Counted from the first letter of the stretch, positions 31,779 to 40,059 are shown. The stretch is DNA of 64,000 nt from Minisyncoccia bacterium (GCA_038228545.1 JBBRPE010000002.1:22426-86425), one strand, 5' to 3'. Notes: a model not told the origin generated them from the letters alone. Program-made: numbers and translations.

Positions 31779-32537
31779 CGCCTCTTTTTTCTTAGGCTCT
31801 TCGGAGTTGAGCCACAAGAAGTCAAAAATACTTCGCATATTCTCGGCTATCTCCTCACTTTCTATAATGACGCCGAATGGTTCATTACTGTATGAACGAA
31901 TTACCGTTTTGTTATCGAAAATCGACAAATCGATGCTTAGAGCGAGCACATCCGGCGCGATGAATCGTCGTTCGGTGAGAGCATCGAACTCAACTCGCTC
32001 GAAATGAGGTTTATGGAGTTGGATACCTTTTGAATACACACCCTTACCCCTCCGTCGCTCCGAGTATTCATCGAGCTCTTTTTCTGAAAAAAGATTTGCG
32101 AGATGCTCGTATGAAAAGATGGTGTAAATTTTCTTAGACTTGGTCATGAGGGCCTCCTCCCTTGTCGCTGACACACCCTCCTTTCCCGGAAAAAAACGAA
32201 CAACGGGACGTTCTCCTGCCCCTTCAAACTGAAGGAGTAGCGCTGGAAGCAAAGTTTGCAACAAACTCTCATTCGTTCGTAAATTTTCTTTTTGCTTTTC
32301 GAGTACTCGCTTAAGAGCCTCCGGGGACTCCGGCGCGAAATACGTTTTCTTCCCCTCCTCATACGTACTCATCAGTCCTTTTTCCATAAGGGACTTTATC
32401 TGTACGTACGTCGTGGGACGTACTATCTTCGCGTGTTTAGCGAGCTGGTCGGCGGTCGCGCGACCGATTTCAATTGATGCAAGATACACTCGGGCCTCTT
32501 TTTCAGATAGACCAAAATCCTGAAGTTCTTTTAGCAT
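31776..32537 (-). CDS. TrmB-family transcriptional regulator (N-terminal wHTH + C-terminal effector-like domain)
   Basis: MLKELQDFGLSEKEARVYLASIEIGRATADQLAKHAKIVRPTTYVQIKSLMEKGL matches TrmB HTH pattern; start trimmed to MLKELQ. Confidence 0.7.
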   Translation of the reverse strand: MLKELQDFGLSEKEARVYLASIEIGRATADQLAKHAKIVRPTTYVQIKSLMEKGLMSTYEEGKKTYFAPESPEALKRVLEKQKENLRTNESLLQTLLPALLLQFEGAGERPVVRFFPGKEGVSATREEALMTKSKKIYTIFSYEHLANLFSEKELDEYSERRRGKGVYSKGIQLHKPHFERVEFDALTERRFIAPDVLALSIDLSIFDNKTVIRSYSNEPFGVIIESEEIAENMRSIFDFLWLNSEEPKKKEA

Positions 32538-32557
32538 GTACACAGAATAGCATTCGG

Positions 32558-32710
32558 TGGTGCGGGATAGGAGAAGTGTCCAGCGAAGACGCAGGCACGC
32601 ATCGGTCACAGATATTTTCCTGCTGGAAAATTCCGCGACCCCGCCTCAGCGCCGACGCGCTTCCGGCTTCCGATTCTCCTATCCCAGCCATTACACACGC
32701 TTCGCGTGTT
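32558..32710. repeat. tRNA-linked conserved element, copy 1 (downstream of tRNA-Gly-UCC on minus strand): partial direct copy of the tRNA 3' end (32558-32574), ~70-nt conserved core (32595-32666), inverted copy of the tRNA T-loop/3' end (32667-32685), hairpin ACACGC-TTC-GCGTGT (32694-32708)
   Basis: Compared by eye with copies at 34905-35250 and 35942-36154; core about 90% identical to copy 3. Confidence 0.55.
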
Positions 32711-32715
32711 ACATG

Positions 32716-32786
32716 TGCGGGATAGGAGAATCGGACTCCTGCTCTCAGTTTGGAAAACTGATGTTCTACCATTAAACTAATCCCGC
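32716..32786 (-). tRNA. tRNA-Gly (anticodon UCC)
   Basis: Manual fold: GCGGGAT/ATCCCGC acceptor, D-arm GTTT-AATGGTA-GAAC, anticodon loop TTTCCAA, T-arm AGGAG-TCCGATT-CTCCT, discriminator A; no encoded CCA. Confidence 0.8.
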
Positions 32787-32854
32787 TGTAGGCCAGAGAA
32801 TACCATATCTTGGCCCTCTCTGTCTTTTTTCGAGCTTCACGGTAGCATTGCCGT

Positions 32855-34072
32855 ATGCGCGAGCACATTGAACATCTCCTGGCCGCCCTCGGTGCCGTCG
32901 GCTTCGCACTTTTCGTTTCCTATTTCAATACGGGCCCCGTACACGTCGCTCCCCTTGAGCGTACGACGCCAACACTAGTGCCTATTTCGCCTGGTGCAGC
33001 AACATACGCGGTGAACACATTCCCATCACTCGCTCTTTCCACATCAACGATTGACCAGATGTTTCCGTCTGGTACTTCTGCACCGAGCGAAAAGAAAACC
33101 AAAACGCCAGCACCGGTAGCTACTCCGGCACCTGTCCCTGTAAAACCTGCCGCTCCGGTGGTTAGCGTAAAACCTAAGCCTGTTCCTAGTGTTGCCACAC
33201 CTACGGTCGCTACGACGACCACTCCCCCAGTAACCTCACCAGTCCTATCCGGACTCGGTAGTGCAGTGGTCAATATTCTATGTACGTCTCGAACAGGAAC
33301 GACACAAGGTCTGTCTGGCTCAGGTACAATCATCGACTCACGCGGCGTAATACTCACTGTTGCTCACGTCGCGCAAGCAGAGCTCCTTGAGCAGGCGTAC
33401 GGACCGGAAACGATGTCGTGTGTTGTTCGTACGGGAAGTCCGGCACACACCGCATACAAAGCAAAAGTTATGTACCTTTCAGAAAATTGGCTAAGAAATA
33501 ATTCAACGACACTGATTAGCTCACACCCGACAGGAAACGGTTCAGATGATTTTGCCCTTCTGGCGATTACTGCATCGGCAACAGGTAGGCCACTCCCTTC
33601 TTCCTTTCCTTCAGTCCCACTTGCAAACATCGTGCCAAACGCCGGTAACACCGTTCAAATTGCTGGCTACGGCGCTGAGCACCTTACCAATACACAAGTG
33701 TTTACATCGCTCACACAAACTCTTATCCAGGGCGCTGTGTCCAAAGTACACAGCTTCCGCGGCGGGACGGCAGACGCACTCTCAGTTGATGGCGGGGACT
33801 CGGCACAGGAAGGTGCGTCCGGAGGCGCAGTAGCAACTTCAAACGGCGCGCTCACCGGCGTAATTACCGGAAGCGAAATTACGAGTACCAGCAGTACCCC
33901 GCTCGTATGGGCTATAACTGTTGACTACATTCGCCGTACGTTCACCGATGCTACGGGTAAAGATTTTGATTCATTCTACCAAGGAAGCATTCCTGACCTC
34001 GTGAATAGTTACGCACCAACCGCTCAGACGCTGGGCACATTCCTCGGTAAAGCTATTGGGCTACAGAGTTAA
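32855..34072 (+). CDS. membrane-anchored trypsin-like serine protease with Pro/Thr-rich linker
   Basis: N-terminal TM; His (TVAHV), Asp (DFALLAI), Ser (GASGGAV) triad contexts. Confidence 0.65.
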   Translation: MREHIEHLLAALGAVGFALFVSYFNTGPVHVAPLERTTPTLVPISPGAATYAVNTFPSLALSTSTIDQMFPSGTSAPSEKKTKTPAPVATPAPVPVKPAAPVVSVKPKPVPSVATPTVATTTTPPVTSPVLSGLGSAVVNILCTSRTGTTQGLSGSGTIIDSRGVILTVAHVAQAELLEQAYGPETMSCVVRTGSPAHTAYKAKVMYLSENWLRNNSTTLISSHPTGNGSDDFALLAITASATGRPLPSSFPSVPLANIVPNAGNTVQIAGYGAEHLTNTQVFTSLTQTLIQGAVSKVHSFRGGTADALSVDGGDSAQEGASGGAVATSNGALTGVITGSEITSTSSTPLVWAITVDYIRRTFTDATGKDFDSFYQGSIPDLVNSYAPTAQTLGTFLGKAIGLQS

Positions 34073-34834
34073 CTCGGCTGCAATCAAGCAATGGTCTGAG
34101 CCATGTCGCTCGGTCTCGACTGAAACACCTTCCACGACAACATCAGCGGACACCAAGATGTGATCGAGTTGGGAACGCGAGAACGGATGTGTTGTAAGCG
34201 AACGGAGCGGATTCTTCATACCGGCCTCGGCAAACTTTTCCTCGATAATATCTCGCTCGGGATACCAAGGCATCGCTTCGGTAAGCGTAGAGCCGAGTAG
34301 CCAATTCAGAACCTTAAGCGGCGGGTATTCAATAATATTAAAATCTCCGCATACAACTGAAGGTACGCCCGGCTGCATGTGCCCCACGACTGCATCGAAT
34401 TCTTTCTGTCTGTTCCCGGGCCCCCACAGCGTGAAGTGAACTGAGAAAATGCGCACGACTTCAGTTCCTCTTCGTATATCTGCGTACACGGCACCGCGTT
34501 CAGTAACGAATGACCACTTGAAAAGAGACATGAACGTTACGAATGCACGAGTATGCGCAGGAAACGGAAAATCGAGAAACTGAAGCGTGCCGGTATGTTC
34601 AAATGGAATCTTCGAAAGTAATGCAACGTAGTTATATTCGCTTCTGCCTTTTCCAAAAAGTCTGAGGACATCAACATGATACGTAAGATGAAACGGCATC
34701 TTCTTAAGTTCTTCGAGAAGCGCAGGTGTTACCTCCTGAAGACACAACACGTCAAAATCTGCCTCGCGAATATACTTCGCAACCTGCGACATCTTCTTAT
34801 TGAAACAGTACACGTTCCAAGACTTGATAATCAT
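34061..34834 (-). CDS. endonuclease/exonuclease/phosphatase (EEP) family protein
   Basis: NVYCFN..., LCLQEV, GDFN, SDHCLI motifs. Confidence 0.75.
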   Translation of the reverse strand: MIIKSWNVYCFNKKMSQVAKYIREADFDVLCLQEVTPALLEELKKMPFHLTYHVDVLRLFGKGRSEYNYVALLSKIPFEHTGTLQFLDFPFPAHTRAFVTFMSLFKWSFVTERGAVYADIRRGTEVVRIFSVHFTLWGPGNRQKEFDAVVGHMQPGVPSVVCGDFNIIEYPPLKVLNWLLGSTLTEAMPWYPERDIIEEKFAEAGMKNPLRSLTTHPFSRSQLDHILVSADVVVEGVSVETERHGSDHCLIAAELTL

Positions 34835-34904
34835 TTCGGAAGTATACGGGTCGATGATGAAGACTTGAAATACGACACTTAGTTAGAAGCCCCATCGTCC
34901 GGAT

Positions 34905-35250
34905 GGCTCCTATTTTTTGCAAATCATTGTCGGGGTGCGCGCCATTGTTTCGTTGCGAGTGTAACGAGTTAGGAAACAACTAGTGCCTTAGGGGTGGAGA
35001 TTGAACTCCGTCATCCGGATGTCTCCCAGACATCCGATTACATGCTGATTCTTTTCTGCAAATCATTGTCGGGGTGCGGAGAAGCTTCGCGCATTGGTCA
35101 CGCATCACTAAGTCGTTTCGCTCCTAAGTAGCGCGACCCCGTCTCGCCGTTTTCGGGAGGACCCGAAAACATGCTCCGGCTTTCAATTCTCCGGAGCAGG
35201 CCAGAGCAGTCTGGCCTGCTCACCACTCCTTCACTCACTTCGTTCATTCA
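34905..35250. repeat. tRNA-Pro trailer repeats: two direct copies of TGCAAATCATTGTCGGGGTGCG (34913-34940, 35058-35085; antisense of tRNA-Pro acceptor 3' strand + trailer), a partial tRNA-Pro 3'-half copy (34990-35022), and a family-type core (35095-35250) with hairpin TTTTCGGG-AGGA-CCCGAAAA and inverted T-arm copy TTCAATTCTCCGGAG
   Basis: Direct sequence comparison with tRNA-Pro gene at 35252-35322 and with Gly-linked elements. Confidence 0.5.
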
Positions 35251-35251
35251 G

Positions 35252-35322
35252 TCGGGGTGCGGAGAATTGAACTCCGTCATCTACTTCCCAAAAGTAGCGT
35301 ACTACCGGTATACGACACCCCG
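35252..35322 (-). tRNA. tRNA-Pro (anticodon UGG)
   Basis: Manual fold: CGGGGTG/CACCCCG acceptor, anticodon stem CTACT/AGTAG loop TTTGGGA (G37), T-arm CGGAG-TTCAATT-CTCCG, discriminator A; no CCA. Confidence 0.7.
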
Positions 35323-35376
35323 TTACGTCTTGTGGGCGTTCCTTGCGGAAACGCCCGTCAGAGCATCCTAGCAGAT

Positions 35377-35772
35377 TTATAGAATTTGGGGGAGATAGCG
35401 TACTCGGGCCTTCCCATCCCTCGTTCGTAGCCACACCAGGACCGCATCCACCTGCCACTCCCCTTCCCAGTCTGTGTTGGCCACATACCACTCGCTTGTA
35501 CGAGCCACTCGCCTAATCTTCGCCTCATGAAGGTTTACAGACGGGTCATAGCGGTCGTTGTTGTCAGCGTCATCAGGAAACTGCACGCAAAGTATTGATT
35601 TAACCTCGACGAAATGAAGGCAATCTCGTTTTCGAGCGACAATATCAATCTCACCCGTCTTACGTGCGACATTCTTCGCGACTATTTTCATTCCCTGTCG
35701 TCGCAGGTATTCGGCAGCAACTTTTTCGCCTAGATTTCCGATGTCCTTTGTTGAAAAAAGGGAGAGGTCCAC
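35377..35772 (-). CDS. YraN-family (UPF0102) endonuclease-like protein
   Basis: AAEYLRRQGMKIVAKNVARKTGEIDIVARKRDCLHFVEVKS matches UPF0102 core. Confidence 0.75.
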   Translation of the reverse strand: MDLSLFSTKDIGNLGEKVAAEYLRRQGMKIVAKNVARKTGEIDIVARKRDCLHFVEVKSILCVQFPDDADNNDRYDPSVNLHEAKIRRVARTSEWYVANTDWEGEWQVDAVLVWLRTRDGKARVRYLPQIL

Positions 35773-35941
35773 GGCTTTAAAGTATAGCTCCGAAATACAC
35801 TCTTTCTCACCGACATTAATGAAAACTACCTAAAGGTCGCCTGTCCTTTATCCCCAGTGTTAACAGGTTTGTCCACTGTTTGAAAATACAAAATGGCCTA
35901 GATACAACGTTTTGTATTTTCACTTTTCTGCATGAGTGTAT

Positions 35942-36154
35942 AGGTGCGGATGGGGAGAATGGAGGGGAGAAGTGTCCTGAGATTATTCAGGCACGCATCG
36001 GTCACAGATATTTCCCTGCTGGGAAATTCCGCGACCCCGCCTCGGCGCCGTCGCGCTTGCGGCTTCCGATTATCCACGCACGGCGTCCCACGCCGTGCTC
36101 TATCCGCCCGTCGACAATGCAAAAACGCCCCAGAGGGGCGTTTTTGCTCGACGG
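35942..36154. repeat. tRNA-linked conserved element, copy 3 (downstream of tRNA-Gly-GCC): partial direct tRNA 3'-end copy GGTGCGGATGGGGAGAA (35942-35958), conserved core (35990-36070), inverted partial CTCTATCCGCC (36097-36107), long hairpin CGTCGACAATGCAAAAACGCCCC-AGA-GGGGCGTTTTTGCTCGACG (36108-36152)
   Basis: Aligned by eye to copy 1; stem TTTTCC/GGAAAA of copy 1 becomes TTTCCC/GGGAAA here (compensatory). Confidence 0.55.
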
Positions 36155-36225
36155 TGCGGATAGGGAGAATCGGACTCCCGCCTCGTCCTTGGCAAGGACG
36201 CGTTCTACCACTAAACCATATCCGC
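36155..36225 (-). tRNA. tRNA-Gly (anticodon GCC)
   Basis: Manual fold: GCGGATA/TATCCGC acceptor, anticodon loop TTGCCAA, T-arm GGGAG-TCCGATT-CTCCC, discriminator A; no CCA. Confidence 0.8.
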
Positions 36226-36266
36226 TTCGCGAGGCATCATAGCATACGCCTCGCTACTCTAACCAG

Positions 36267-36338
36267 TGCCTCCGCCAGGATTCGAACCTGGAACGACAGT
36301 TTCGAAGACTGTTGTGATATCCATTTCACTACAGAGGC
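36267..36338 (-). tRNA. tRNA-Arg (anticodon UCG)
   Basis: Manual fold: GCCTCTG/CGGAGGC acceptor, anticodon loop CTTCGAA, T-arm CCAGG-TTCGAAT-CCTGG; no CCA. Confidence 0.8.
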
Positions 36339-36394
36339 AATACCGAAATACTACGCGAGACCTCAGAGAAAGGCTACGTGGTAGTATTTTCTCG

Positions 36395-37855
36395 ATGCAC
36401 TTCTCCATTCCGCTTGAGGTACGCACGGTTACCGATGCCCTGAGAAAGGCCGGCTACGAGGCATATTTGGTCGGTGGCTGCGTCCGTGACCTACTTATAG
36501 GACGAACGCCTAAGGATTGGGATGTAACCACGAACGCGAAGCCAGGGGAGATTCAGGCCATCTTTCCCGAATCCTTTTATGAAAATGATTTTGGAACCGT
36601 TGGTGTAAAGACCGATTCAGAAGATTCAACACTTTCAATCATCGAGGTAACTCCCTATCGAACCGAGACAGGCTACTCAGACAAGCGTCGTCCAGACTCC
36701 GTCGCATTTGGAAATAGCCTCACGGACGATCTGGCCCGGAGAGACTTCACCATTAACGCGATTGCCCTTGATGATTCTAAAGGACAACTTCTTGACCCGT
36801 ATAAAGGACAGGAGGACATTACGGCTAGGGTACTCCGCACCGTTGGCTCCCCTACTGAGCGTTTTGAAGAAGACGCGCTTCGCCTTATGCGTGCAGTCCG
36901 TCTTGTCGCCGAGCTCGGATTTGCCCTTGATGCTGACACTGCAGCTGCAATTAAAGAAAAGGGTCCTAATCTACGATACATTTCACGTGAAAGGATTCGC
37001 GACGAGTTTGTACGTATATTGAATTCAAAAGAGCCTATGATGGCCCTGGTTCTCTGCCAACAGCTTGGAATTCTTGAATATATAGCCCCTGAGCTCACTC
37101 AGGGTATCGGAATCGACCAAAACCAAGCTCACAGTTATGACGTTTTTGGACACCTCATGCGTTCCCTACAACACGCCGCAGATAAGGACTGGGACTTTGA
37201 CACGCGCCTTGCTGCTGTATTTCACGATGTCGCCAAGCCCGAGACACGTCGCTGGTCTGACGAAAAGAAAGATTGGACCTTCCACGGTCACGAGGTTGTA
37301 GGAGCCCGTATGACAAGAAAGGCTTTGGAGGGGCTCAAGTTTCCACGTGAAACTATAGAGCGAGTGAGTAAACTGGTGCGCTGGCACATGTTCTTCTCAG
37401 ACCCTGATCAGATAACCCTTTCGGCGGTTCGACGCATGATTCGGAATGTGGGAGAGGAAAACATTAACGACCTGTTGAATCTGCGTATTTGCGACCGAAT
37501 TGGAACCGGTAGGCCTAAGGAGCAGCCGTTTCGCTTCCGTAAGTACAAAGCCATGGTGGACGAGGCACTTCGCGACCCGATATCAGTTGGTATGCTCAAA
37601 ACTGATGGAAATCGGCTTATGAACGTGTTTCATGTGGCACCCGGCCCACGCATTGGAAATGTACTTAATGCCCTTCTCGAGGAGGTTCTGGAGAGCCCGA
37701 AGTTGAATACGGAGTCTTATTTAGATACCCGAACACATTCCTTGCTAGAACTCAGCGACGACGAATTAAAGAAATTGGGAGATTCAGGTAAGAAGAAGAA
37801 AGAAGCTGAGGAGGAAAAGGAAATAAAGGAAATAATGAGGAAACACCACGTATAG
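36395..37855 (+). CDS. cca: CCA-adding tRNA nucleotidyltransferase with HD domain
   Basis: GGCVRD...DWDV polymerase-beta head, HD motif (HDVAKP); start trimmed to MHFSIPLE to clear tRNA-Arg. Confidence 0.85.
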   Translation: MHFSIPLEVRTVTDALRKAGYEAYLVGGCVRDLLIGRTPKDWDVTTNAKPGEIQAIFPESFYENDFGTVGVKTDSEDSTLSIIEVTPYRTETGYSDKRRPDSVAFGNSLTDDLARRDFTINAIALDDSKGQLLDPYKGQEDITARVLRTVGSPTERFEEDALRLMRAVRLVAELGFALDADTAAAIKEKGPNLRYISRERIRDEFVRILNSKEPMMALVLCQQLGILEYIAPELTQGIGIDQNQAHSYDVFGHLMRSLQHAADKDWDFDTRLAAVFHDVAKPETRRWSDEKKDWTFHGHEVVGARMTRKALEGLKFPRETIERVSKLVRWHMFFSDPDQITLSAVRRMIRNVGEENINDLLNLRICDRIGTGRPKEQPFRFRKYKAMVDEALRDPISVGMLKTDGNRLMNVFHVAPGPRIGNVLNALLEEVLESPKLNTESYLDTRTHSLLELSDDELKKLGDSGKKKKEAEEEKEIKEIMRKHHV

Positions 37856-38325: not shown

Positions 38326-39120
38326 CTAGAGAGTAATCGAGACAGGGCAGTGGTCTGAGCCCATAGCCTCAGGATGAATTTCGGCAGTCTTTACATGCTT
38401 TGCAAGCTTGTTGGAGACAAATATGTAATCAATACGCCACCCCACATTACGTTCACGTGCGCCACCGAAGTTACTCCACCACGTATATAAGCCGTTTCCT
38501 TCCTTAAACAGGCGAAGTGTATCTTTGAAACCGCCAGCAATTATCTGATCAATACCTTCGCGTTCTTCGCTCGTAAAGCCTTTCTTTCCTTCGTTTTCTT
38601 TGGGGCGCGCAAGGTCTTCCGGAAGGTGAGCTACATTTAAGTCACCGCAAAAAATGACGGGTTTTTCTTCCTCAAGACGCTTCATGTATTCGAGAAATGC
38701 AGGGTCCCAATGCTTGTGGCGAAGATCGAGACGTGACAAATCATCTTTTGCATTTGGTGTATATACCGACACTACATAGAAATCATGCATGTCTGCTGCG
38801 ATAATACGCCCTTCTTCGTTCGGGTCTCCGTAGCTATCGTCCGACAAACCCCATTTCTTTGCGATATCTTCCGGCATGCCGAAGAGCACGTCCTCTGGCG
38901 TCATCTTGCTAAAAATGGCCGTGCCACTGTAGCCCTTACGAGCCTTTGAGGAGCTCCAGAATTCCTCATAGTCAGGAAGATCGAGAGGGGACTGCTCCTG
39001 CTCTGCCTTTGTTTCCTGCAGGCAGAGAATATCGGGCTTATATTTCTTCATAAACGGCATAAAGAGGTCTTTTTTGTGGACCGCCCGAATACCGTTTACA
39101 TTCCATGACACGATACGCAT
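38326..39120 (-). CDS. xth: exodeoxyribonuclease III
   Basis: MRIVSWNVNGIRA..., LCLQET, GDLNVAH, SDHCPV. Confidence 0.9.
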   Translation of the reverse strand: MRIVSWNVNGIRAVHKKDLFMPFMKKYKPDILCLQETKAEQEQSPLDLPDYEEFWSSSKARKGYSGTAIFSKMTPEDVLFGMPEDIAKKWGLSDDSYGDPNEEGRIIAADMHDFYVVSVYTPNAKDDLSRLDLRHKHWDPAFLEYMKRLEEEKPVIFCGDLNVAHLPEDLARPKENEGKKGFTSEEREGIDQIIAGGFKDTLRLFKEGNGLYTWWSNFGGARERNVGWRIDYIFVSNKLAKHVKTAEIHPEAMGSDHCPVSITL

Positions 39121-39141: not shown

Positions 39142-40059
39142 CTATTGCTGACGCGAGTGGAAACGTTTATGTACTTCACGTAGATGCGCGTCGGTAACGT
39201 GCGTGTAAATCTGGGTGGTATTGATAGAGGCATGGCCCAGGAGAGCCTGAACACTGCGTATATCAGCACCATTTGAAAGGAGGTCGGTAGCGAATACGTG
39301 ACGAAGCGTATGAGGGCTTACCTTATTGGTTATTCCGGCTTGTGCAGCGTACTTCTTAATGTGACGCTGGATATCACGTGGTGTGATGCGATGCGGTTTG
39401 GTATCGCGGCCATCTACAAAAAGTGCTTCCTCCATGTCCTTACGGGCCTTCAAATAGGCCGTAACAGAGTCCTTGGCAGCAGGCGAGAGAAATACGACCC
39501 GTACTTTCTCGCCTTTTCCGCGTACCGAAAGGTCGTCGCGAGTGAGATCGATGTCTGAATTGAGTGCACAGAGTTCCGCCACACGAAGCCCTGTTGAGAA
39601 AAGGAGCTCGAGAATGGCGGTATCACGCAGTGCTACTTGCTGTTTGCGCGGCTCATCACTTTTCTTAGCTACGTCTTCCGGTGCTTTCATGAGACGTTCG
39701 AGCTCCGCGGAAGTGATGATATCAATTTGGCGCTCCGGAAGCTTGGCGAGCTCAATTCGTTCGGGATTCAGGCCCTCTACACCGCGTTTACGTAAATACT
39801 TAAGGAAAGCGCGTAGGGCAATGAGGTAGTAATTCTGTGTGCGGCGCTTCATGGTCGCGTTTCCCGTACCTGGCTGGCGGTTAAGCCAAAGGCGGAATTC
39901 ACGGATTTTGTCCTCTGAGATGTCTCCAACGCCCTGAATCTTCATTTGTTCAAAGAAAACCGATAGGTAATGGTCGTAATTTTCGACTGTTTTTACCGCA
40001 CGACCACGCTCAATTTCCGTATATTCGAGGAATTCACGCTTCATCTGTACCGCGTCCAT
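39142..40059 (-). CDS. tyrosine site-specific recombinase, XerC/XerD-like
   Basis: N-terminal SAM-like core-binding domain; catalytic R..HxxR..Y context (TLRHVFATDLL...GHASINTTQIYTHV). Confidence 0.8.
   Translation of the reverse strand: MDAVQMKREFLEYTEIERGRAVKTVENYDHYLSVFFEQMKIQGVGDISEDKIREFRLWLNRQPGTGNATMKRRTQNYYLIALRAFLKYLRKRGVEGLNPERIELAKLPERQIDIITSAELERLMKAPEDVAKKSDEPRKQQVALRDTAILELLFSTGLRVAELCALNSDIDLTRDDLSVRGKGEKVRVVFLSPAAKDSVTAYLKARKDMEEALFVDGRDTKPHRITPRDIQRHIKKYAAQAGITNKVSPHTLRHVFATDLLSNGADIRSVQALLGHASINTTQIYTHVTDAHLREVHKRFHSRQQ

Follow-up and report, generated by a model that had tools for sequence, protein, structure and literature searches.

The question raised by this locus is why sequences from the 3' end of a tRNA gene recur directly behind that gene. 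The gene concerned is tRNA-Pro(UGG) at 35251-35322 on the minus strand of a 64,000-nucleotide stretch of DNA from a Minisyncoccia bacterium, which is referred to here as the window, and the repeated sequences lie immediately downstream, at 34905-35250. The initial annotation had read them as serial att-like scars, left by repeated integration and excision of elements with tRNA-targeting recombinases. Our analysis shows that the part adjoining the gene (35066-35250, minus strand) is an intact member of a family of homologous structured modules, and we consider it highly probable that the stretch behind tRNA-Pro belongs to this family rather than being a series of scars. A broader statement, which blends several points, seems to us probable, with clearly less confidence: the downstream end of tRNA-Pro harbours a small structured RNA element, which is associated with tRNA genes and follows the design of the RtT (tyrT) repeats of Escherichia coli.

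The copies of the tRNA 3' end are real. The tRNA-Pro gene itself is complete (ARAGORN; 54.7 bits with the Rfam tRNA model), which rules out a split, permuted or intron-containing gene, and its last 16 nucleotides (35251-35266) form the first copy of the repeated 3' end. The two direct copies of a 22-mer that had been annotated were confirmed as exact: TGCAAATCATTGTCGGGGTGCG occurs precisely twice in the window, at 34918-34939 and 35057-35078, and did not occur with up to 3 mismatches in any of 100 shuffled sequences. The repeat extends to 27 nucleotides, 26 of them identical, starting from 34913 and 35052. On the tRNA strand the 22-mer reads CGCACCCCGAC followed by AATGATTTGCA. The first 11 nucleotides correspond to positions 62-72 of tRNA-Pro plus one base, and the last 11 are a trailer that is common to these two copies only; the trailer of the intact gene (TGAATGAACG...) differs, sharing just AATGA with that of the copies. 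In addition, 35068-35083 is identical at 16 of 16 nucleotides (GTCGGGGTGCGGAGAA) to the tRNA-Pro 3' end at 35251-35266, which places a copy of this end 183 nucleotides downstream of the gene, and 35000-35015 is equally identical (16/16, ATTGAACTCCGTCATC) to the T-arm and variable region at 35266-35281. When the tRNA was aligned locally with the 416 nucleotides downstream, three segments were obtained: 34991-35015 (score 38; tRNA positions 42-69 with two gaps), 35063-35083 (score 35) and 34924-34939 (score 25). In 300 shuffles the mean score was 16.6, the 95th percentile 21 and the highest score 25. A chance similarity is thereby ruled out, and the further partial tRNA copy mentioned in the initial annotation is the best-scoring segment of all. 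All copies lie within 335 nucleotides downstream of tRNA-Pro, in agreement with the 350 nucleotides originally stated.

The view that no cargo remains between the repeats found no support, since the 167 nucleotides between tRNA-Pro and the first downstream copy constitute a conserved and strongly folded module. Related loci were retrieved by a scan with the CCA-adding enzyme, which yielded 80 loci from Parcubacteria/Kaiserbacteria-type genomes (L001-L080), and extra copies of each tRNA were sought in every locus. A recurrent pattern was seen in 24 of 81 sources, where a direct copy of the tRNA's own last ~16 nucleotides lies ~150-240 nucleotides behind a Gly(UCC), Pro, Gly(GCC) or Arg gene, often with an inverted copy in between. 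Upon alignment, the stretches bracketed by these copies proved to be homologous. A covariance model, R1, was run on the window, the 80 loci and the metagenome contigs that matched the core pattern, of which there were at least 120. This resulted in 179 copies: 3 in the window, 32 in the 80 loci and 144 in the metagenome contigs. The match behind tRNA-Pro (35066-35196) scored 89.6-89.7 bits with E-values of 1e-18 to 7e-22. It starts 54 nucleotides after the tRNA, and the leader of the module fills that gap. Folded as a single sequence, 35066-35232 reached -77.9 kcal/mol (z = -5.2) and reproduced the family structure.

The association of these modules with tRNA genes is strong and strand-specific. 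The 35 copies in the window and the 80 loci all lie 25-103 nucleotides behind a tRNA gene and on the same strand, with the exception of one copy in L051. Among the 160 copies with enough upstream sequence, 138 are located within 400 nucleotides downstream of a tRNA (134) or transfer-messenger RNA (tmRNA; 4) gene, and all 138 are on the strand of that gene, none being on the opposite strand; 19 of the 179 copies lie at contig edges. The tRNA hosts represent 37 anticodons, and the median distance from the tRNA end is 52 nucleotides. The orientation of the module follows that of the tRNA even where the tRNA gene has been inverted, as in L056 and L070. In the window, three of the four tRNA genes carry a module, with R1 matches at 35942-36079 behind Gly(GCC), at 35066-35196 behind Pro and at 32558-32683 behind Gly(UCC).

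On the tRNA strand, the layout of a module consists of a leader (..ACGAAGTGAG..), the inverted copy of the tRNA end, UCGAA, a hairpin (GCCGGAGCG...CGCGAGGC), GGG, a long hairpin (GGUCGCGG...CCGUGACC), GAAA and the direct copy. An additional hairpin with a UAAU loop may be inserted between GAAA and the direct copy, and in many cases a variable hairpin interrupts the inverted copy precisely where the acceptor portion joins the T-stem portion. This structure is supported by covariation. For 15 sequences, RNAalifold predicted 27 base pairs, 16 of which show compensatory changes. Among 93 distinct metagenome members, 94.7% of the cells in the alignment are paired, compared with 69% in shuffles and 31-47% in slid controls, and 24 of the 27 pairs change on both sides. 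It should be noted that this 93-member alignment was fitted to the model; the margin over the controls is large. One G.U pair is conserved in 87 of the 93 members, and another is G.U or G.C in 51 and 34 members, respectively. The conservation of G.U pairs indicates that the fold is specific to the tRNA-sense strand. Conserved unpaired nucleotides are likewise found in the conserved interior.

The individual parts are readily recognised behind tRNA-Pro (all on the minus strand). The leader TGAATGAACGAAGTGAGTGAAGGAGTGGT at 35222-35250 contains the motif ACGAAGTGAG that is seen in other modules (consensus of alignment A1, nAnnCGAAnAnAGTGAG). The leader closes with GAGTGGTG, which extends to 35221 and represents the acceptor 3' strand in inverted, degenerate form; the last G of this sequence also opens hairpin P-alpha (35194-35221). 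The latter has a perfect stem of 12 base pairs, GAGCAGGCCAGA/TCTGGCCTGCTC, which was detected both in the fold and as a 100% complementary inverted repeat of 12 nucleotides (I2). P-alpha is located at the junction of the inverted acceptor part and the inverted T-stem part, as is the corresponding hairpin in other modules. Next, the T-stem 3' strand and T-loop of tRNA-Pro recur in inverted form as CGGAGAATTGAA at 35182-35193, which provides the 5' strand of the closing helix P1; the inverted repeat I1 between 35177-35193 and the tRNA T-arm (35260-35276) is 88% complementary. The conserved core at 35084-35181, as defined by R1, covariation and the fold, comprises hairpin P2/P3 (GCCGGAGC...GGCGAGAC), GGG, hairpin P4/P5 (GGTCGCG...CGTGACC) and a linker. 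The intact module ends with the second copy of the tRNA-Pro 3' end, TTCTCCGCACCCCGAC at 35068-35083 (16/16), which provides the 3' strand of P1. The covariance model alignment pairs GGAGAA with UUCUCC in this helix, and in the tRNA-Pro module CGGAGAA pairs with UUCUCCG. There is no credible gene between the repeats; the only listed open reading frames (ORFs) of 40-66 amino acids overlap either the tRNA gene or the structured module. An ATG ORF of 49 codons (35098-35247, minus strand) spans the module and is reminiscent of the tpr ORF inside the E. coli RtT.

A defining feature of the family is that both ends of a module are derived from the tRNA behind which it lies. The last 16-21 nucleotides of its own tRNA are repeated at both ends of each module, in inverted form at the start and in direct form at the end, and these copies pair to form the closing helix. 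Both kinds of copy can be exact, as in the Gly(UCC) module of the window. The left boundary of the direct copy is sharp and falls at C56 in the T-loop (gtt|CGA in the gene, gtgac|CGA in the module), or at U59 in the subclass with an extra hairpin, in which the window is included. The right boundary varies from the discriminator to 38 nucleotides into the trailer. The inverted copy tracks the T-loop variants TCCGATT, TTCGATT and TTCAATT. It is the complement of the 3' strand and not a copy of the 5' acceptor strand, as can be told from one case, L100, where it carries an A opposite U72 and the tRNA has a G1.U72 pair. At the same time, interiors that are 80-88% identical adjoin unrelated tRNA species, across GC contents of 40-76%. 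In most direct copies the bases following position 72 are those of the gene's own trailer rather than CCA; the copy must therefore have been made from DNA, which contradicts a retro-copy of mature tRNA. Nevertheless, 12 of 66 direct copies are followed by a CCA that is not encoded by the tRNA gene, including that of the Gly(UCC) module in the window. This enrichment of CCA suggests selection for a tRNA-like RNA end. Since the 3' strand of the closing helix has the sequence of the T-stem/acceptor 3' strand, the RNA would indeed end like a tRNA. With respect to the T-loop variants, both tRNA-Gly genes of the window (32715-32786 and 36153-36225) have the T-loop TCCGATT with a C at position 55, as do those in L004 and L033, and the inverted copies of the modules carry the matching change; a U, as pseudouridine 55, is almost universal at this position.

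The T-loop boundary is also an argument for the explanation from which the initial annotation started, namely that elements with tyrosine or serine recombinases integrated repeatedly at the tRNA-Pro 3' end and were then lost, leaving nothing functional between the fragments. An identity block from the T-loop to the gene end is typical of the T-loop class of integrase sites, and the direct copies run from the T-loop to the gene end or beyond. As at such sites, the tRNA stays intact, serial arrays occur and tmRNA genes, which are classic integration sites too, carry modules. The distal unit behind tRNA-Pro lacks structure and carries a more extended piece of displaced tRNA (positions 42-69); in L051 and L107, the tRNA end is separated from a distal module or copy by genes. 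On the other hand, the segment between the tRNA and the second copy is not leftover DNA, but a conserved covarying module, and the 'insert' consists of 125-200 nucleotides of conserved structured sequence without integrase or gene cargo. No integrase was found between or adjoining the repeats, or in or adjoining any array examined. The only tyrosine recombinase nearby (39142-40059) is 3.8 kb away, Xer-like and a core gene that is present in 65 of the 80 relatives regardless of modules; the inferred action of recombinases is thus not supported. Furthermore, scars do not account for the presence of an inverted tRNA end, for the covariation of the interior or for ends that both correspond to whichever of 37 different tRNAs precedes the module. 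Homologous interiors serve dozens of tRNA species, and near-identical interiors at different tRNAs would have produced chimeric, defective tRNAs if the element had supplied a replacement 3' end. What can be retained from the original proposal is that the direct copies are truly serial and that their left boundary lies in the T-loop, as at the sites of tRNA-targeting elements; scars are plausible for 34892-35067 only. Altogether, we regard integration scars as an unlikely account of this locus.

The comparison with related loci further indicates that the module is an addition to an otherwise stable gene arrangement. The window represents a Patescibacteria chromosome, and the genes in the neighbourhood encode an endonuclease/exonuclease/phosphatase (EEP) family nuclease, YraN, the CCA-adding enzyme, a second EEP protein and the Xer-like recombinase. 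The order Arg(UCG)-Gly(GCC)-YraN-Pro(UGG)-[EEP]-trypsin-like-Gly(UCC) is kept in all 80 related loci, and the genes between the tRNAs, encoding the EEP nuclease, YraN and the trypsin-like protease that flank the repeats, are therefore core genes and not cargo. No exact match of the YraN or EEP protein is on record. In the window the gap between tRNA-Pro and the EEP start codon measures 416 nucleotides, versus 0-55 nucleotides in the 6 relatives in which Pro and EEP are adjacent, and the orthologous sites in these relatives are empty. Because relatives with the same tRNA-Pro/EEP order have so little spacer, the extra DNA, as judged from this spacing, is dispensable, lineage-specific material that is gained and lost. 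In L042 and L063 the EEP start codon abuts tRNA-Pro without any spacer, which implies a tRNA-mRNA co-transcript in these loci. The extra DNA of the window accordingly sits inside a presumed tRNA-Pro/EEP transcription unit.

Several other features of the neighbourhood may be mentioned here. On its two sides the tRNA array has paralogous EEP genes (34061-34834 and 38326-39120), of which the first is conserved in about 8 and the second in 75 of the 80 relatives. Single tRNA genes are inverted within the conserved array in some relatives. Examples are Pro in L015, L024, L053, L057, L058, L070, L076, L077 and L079, Gly(GCC) in L014, L017 and L068, and the Arg and Gly genes as a pair in L056 and L059. 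Where a module is present, it has been flipped along with its tRNA.

The distal part of the stretch, 34892-35067, has a different character (all features on the minus strand). It folds no better than shuffled sequences (z = -0.58), it gives no R1 match and it has no relative in any locus. Unit 2 (34941-35067) appears decayed and consists of a trailer (AATGATTTGCAGAAAA), a hairpin (GGATGTCTGGGAGACATCC, 35017-35035), the sense fragment of tRNA-Pro positions 42-69 (34991-35015, with two gaps) and a spacer of 50 nucleotides. It is followed by the third copy of the 3' end, CGCACCCCGAC at 34929-34939, which together with a trailer as in copy 2 (AATGATTTGCAAAAAA) occupies 34913-34939. At 34892-34910 a further, truncated unit starts; its sequence GGAGCCATCCGGACGATGG and GGAGACATCCGGATGACGG in unit 2 make up direct repeat D3, with 84% identity and a spacing of 116. 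The tRNA fragment of unit 2 is closest to the window's own tRNA-Pro(UGG), which speaks against a relic of tRNA-Pro(GGG). The most suitable interpretation of this part is an older unit, now decayed and in part duplicated (a 1.4-copy repeat), or a tRNA fragment, and the terms scar or relic apply to no other section. Of the suggestion that the repeats are relics or very small mobile units, it can therefore be said that the units are indeed very small and that only the distal one looks like a relic.

It is also this distal part that might suggest decayed tandem duplications of the tRNA-Pro gene, that is, tRNA pseudogenes without any separate element. In unit 2, tRNA positions 42-57 are present in sense orientation (16/16) and a degenerate 3' end comes after them, the hairpin preceding the fragment has a UGGGA loop resembling the anticodon loop, and the repeat of 22-27 nucleotides has a period of 139 nucleotides. 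Such duplications would account for 34892-35067 at most. No copy of the 5' half or D-arm was found, Tandem Repeats Finder reports no array in the region, and the proximal unit belongs to a family with a non-tRNA core that is found behind 37 tRNA species. An origin from pseudogenes alone is for these reasons very improbable, even more so than integration scars.

The window contains two sister modules. The one behind tRNA-Gly(GCC) (35942-36110, minus strand; R1 64.2 bits) is preceded by a hairpin resembling an intrinsic terminator. Its acceptor copy in inverted orientation is GCGGATAG and its direct copy is ATTCTCCCCATCCGCAC (17/18); a P-alpha hairpin and the core are present as well. The one behind tRNA-Gly(UCC) (32558-32685, minus strand; R1 96.9 bits) has a contiguous inverted copy (GGGATAGGAGAATCGGA), the core and the direct copy TTCTCCTATCCCGCAC, which continues with CA so that position 73 is followed by CCA. 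The interiors of these two modules are 94% identical over 84 nucleotides.

Outside the window, some members occur in unusual contexts. Modules behind tmRNA genes were found in L129, L081, L134 and L144; in L129 the inverted copy matches the tmRNA 3' end and the direct copy does not. In L051 (4381-7005) tRNA-Gly(UCC) is separated from its module plus direct copy by 2.4 kb of DNA that contains two ORFs of unknown function and resembles a small island with the tRNA end and the module as its borders. In L107 (3076-4100) two 100% identical modules, including ~40 nucleotides of leader and ~30 nucleotides of trailer, flank an ORF of 183 amino acids with partial similarity to indole-3-glycerol-phosphate synthase. 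L139 (652-910) contains a partial tRNA-Lys copy that ends in the T-loop and is fused to a module, followed by an intact tRNA-Lys and a second module. In L160 (~500-660) a module lies behind a protein-coding gene, presumably that for ribosomal protein L7/L12 to judge from its C-terminal peptide, and the inverted copy matches the last bases of this gene. The design is therefore not strictly limited to tRNA genes. Lastly, a second type of interior (..GAAGACCTTGCGAGC..GCAAGGTGTACTGATCCTGTAAGGATCGA..GCGTAATCGC..) with the same inverted-plus-direct design of the ends, not detected by R1, was observed behind tRNA-Arg(UCG) in L036, L043, L045, L049, L053, L008, L070 and L073 and behind tRNA-Tyr in L127. 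The design of the ends is thus more general than any one core.

We searched for known families to which the modules might belong. Rfam 15 holds none: the whole window at gathering thresholds, and 34700-35500 and 32400-36400 at permissive E-values, returned tRNAs only. There was no support for identities as tmRNA, permuted tmRNA, group I intron, ribozyme or omega-RNA. A phage or plasmid origin was rejected, as no viral contig contained the core pattern and blastn gave no match in phages or plasmids. In literature searches, no description of such elements in bacteria of the Candidate Phyla Radiation was found.

The closest parallel is provided by the RtT repeats (RF00391; rttR, tpr) of E. coli. 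The tyrT repeats were first described decades ago; RtT has a 178-bp repeat structure and is reported to be a processed RNA, a stable small RNA trimmed from the tRNA transcript by the 3'-processing machinery. The tyrT-tyrV locus of E. coli K-12 has four copies, each with a trailer, an inverted copy (GGGGAAGGAU), GAGAA, hairpins and a direct copy (AUCCUUCCCCCACCACCA) that equals the last 19 nucleotides of tRNA-Tyr. Like the modules, RtT lies directly downstream of a tRNA gene and on the same strand. The order of trailer, inverted copy of the T-stem/acceptor 3' strand, GAGAA or UCGAA element, internal hairpins and direct copy of the last ~19 nucleotides is the same. The inverted and direct copies form a closing helix, on which the Rfam consensus structure closes as well. 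Tandem units with partial units at the end occur in both, and some metagenome modules have the variant ..GGGAUGAGAA.. in common with RtT. The two differ in their interior: the modules have two long hairpins in a multi-way junction, and RtT has a nested stem that contains two small hairpins and precedes a long single strand. They also differ in distribution, since RtT is found only at tRNA-Tyr in E. coli K-12, whereas the modules, which come from Patescibacteria and unassigned metagenome contigs, are located behind tmRNA genes and tRNA genes of 37 anticodons. The link with RtT is one of architecture, with homology demonstrable in neither direction: the modules would work like RtT without being members of RF00391. 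For RtT itself the function has been stated as unknown, and its copies differ in number or position between Erwinia strains (PMC7542023).

Other systems share fewer features with the modules. As miniature inverted-repeat transposable elements they do not qualify, because their terminal inverted repeats change with the host tRNA and the duplication is variable (16-56 nucleotides) rather than fixed. Guide and bridge RNAs, such as TnpB omega RNA and IS110 bridge RNA, have an adjacent nuclease or recombinase ORF, which is lacking in the window and the arrays, and the tRNA-matching 3' segment of the module is paired in the conserved fold, unlike an unpaired guide; the Rfam HEARO and IS605-orfB models gave no match. 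The tRNA-like domains of tmRNA, Y-RNA-like YrlA and mascRNA have in common with the modules an acceptor/T-stem-like helix that ends in the discriminator, with or without CCA, and that is likely read by tRNA-processing enzymes. The modules differ from these in having no T-loop, D-arm analogue or coding part, in having in many copies a helix that runs through the discriminator and in having the sequence of the neighbouring tRNA, and the Rfam models of tRNA-like-domain families gave no relevant match to them.

A comparison with integron attC sites and the folded attP of CTX phage leads to another explanation, in which the module is a recombination site folded in single-stranded DNA: the hairpin of a miniature cassette would mimic the tRNA gene end, and a tyrosine recombinase, for example the host Xer, would join it to the T-loop. 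In attC and CTX attP, too, imperfect inverted repeats surround a variable centre, a hairpin of one strand mimics the duplex site, and tandem arrays occur; the arrays in L070, L116 and L190 resemble cassette arrays. The fold of the modules is strand-specific and DNA tolerates G.T pairs, the closing helix reproduces 16-21 base pairs of the target duplex, and terminators often part the module from the tRNA transcript. Moreover, the tyrT-rttR region is enriched in the exonuclease-resistant 'mobilome' DNA of stressed E. coli (bioRxiv 10.1101/2024.07.17.603846). However, no integron-type integrase was seen among the neighbours scanned, nor was an attI, and the helix varies with the local target from which it is copied, whereas attC has a fixed, conserved R'/R'' core (GTTRRRY). 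The interior is far more conserved (80-88%, at GC contents of 40-76%) than that of attC, and has conserved unpaired nucleotides and an invariant G.U pair as in functional RNAs. The CCA after the direct copy points to an RNA 3' end, RtT has been described as an RNA product, and moves between different tRNAs would here as well yield chimeric tRNAs. We therefore regard a single-stranded DNA site as improbable, to the same degree as integration scars.

The reading as an RNA element of the RtT design has to be weighed against a number of observations that do not fit it well. Firstly, the RF00391 model, with a gathering threshold of 45 bits and a score of 133-138 bits for the E. coli control, found no match to the modules in 34700-35500 (E ≤ 10), in 32400-36400 (E ≤ 5) or in ten metagenome loci (E ≤ 10), and R1 scored only 8.7 bits on RtT. 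Secondly, an intrinsic terminator lies between the tRNA and the module in many members, so that read-through from the tRNA is not guaranteed, and the fold may act in single-stranded DNA of the same strand. Thirdly, 22 of the 179 copies have no tRNA or tmRNA within 400 nucleotides, and the distal part of the closing helix behind tRNA-Pro is degenerate, with 5 of 7 pairs. Lastly, the empty sites could be explained by repeated precise loss instead of gain, and an enzyme for spreading was not found, no recombinase being present in the inserts of L051 or L107.

With these points in mind, we give even chances to the idea that the module acts as a processed RNA. Given its position within the presumed transcription unit, and an EEP start codon that in relatives comes 0-11 nucleotides after the tRNA, the module would be transcribed as part of a tRNA-Pro/EEP transcript, and the tRNA 3'-processing machinery would trim it into a stable small RNA. 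The flanking direct repeats would allow precise loss and tandem amplification by slippage or recombination, and this would account for the serial copies as well as for the empty sites. A T-loop-anchored step that copies the target's own DNA into both ends might carry the element to new tRNA genes and would fit the observations. This last step is speculation, and any particular mechanism of spread appears doubtful to us. Still tentative, and slightly more plausible, is the possibility that the modules and the RtT repeats of E. coli together represent a widespread, unrecognised class of miniature selfish RNA elements that home to the T-loop and 3' end of tRNA and tmRNA genes. Such elements would have both strands of the closing helix rebuilt from target DNA at each insertion, and would hence be self-retargeting. 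They would encode no protein of their own, and their expression and maturation would ride on the transcription and processing of the tRNA.

Our findings imply that repeats of tRNA 3' ends in Patescibacteria should not be taken for scars of prophages or genomic islands, nor for tRNA pseudogenes, when genomes are annotated. They also reveal a large structured RNA family, with 179 copies behind 37 anticodons and tmRNA, that is absent from Rfam 15. As a second and far more diverse family of the RtT design, it makes the question of the function and origin of RtT testable by comparative genomics. The features that remain constant are a closing helix equal to the host tRNA end, a boundary in the T-loop and a frequent CCA, and the interior is free to vary. 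Should the target prove to be the template for the ends at insertion, the modules would exemplify a novel strategy by which mobile elements recognise a universal safe site and use it again.

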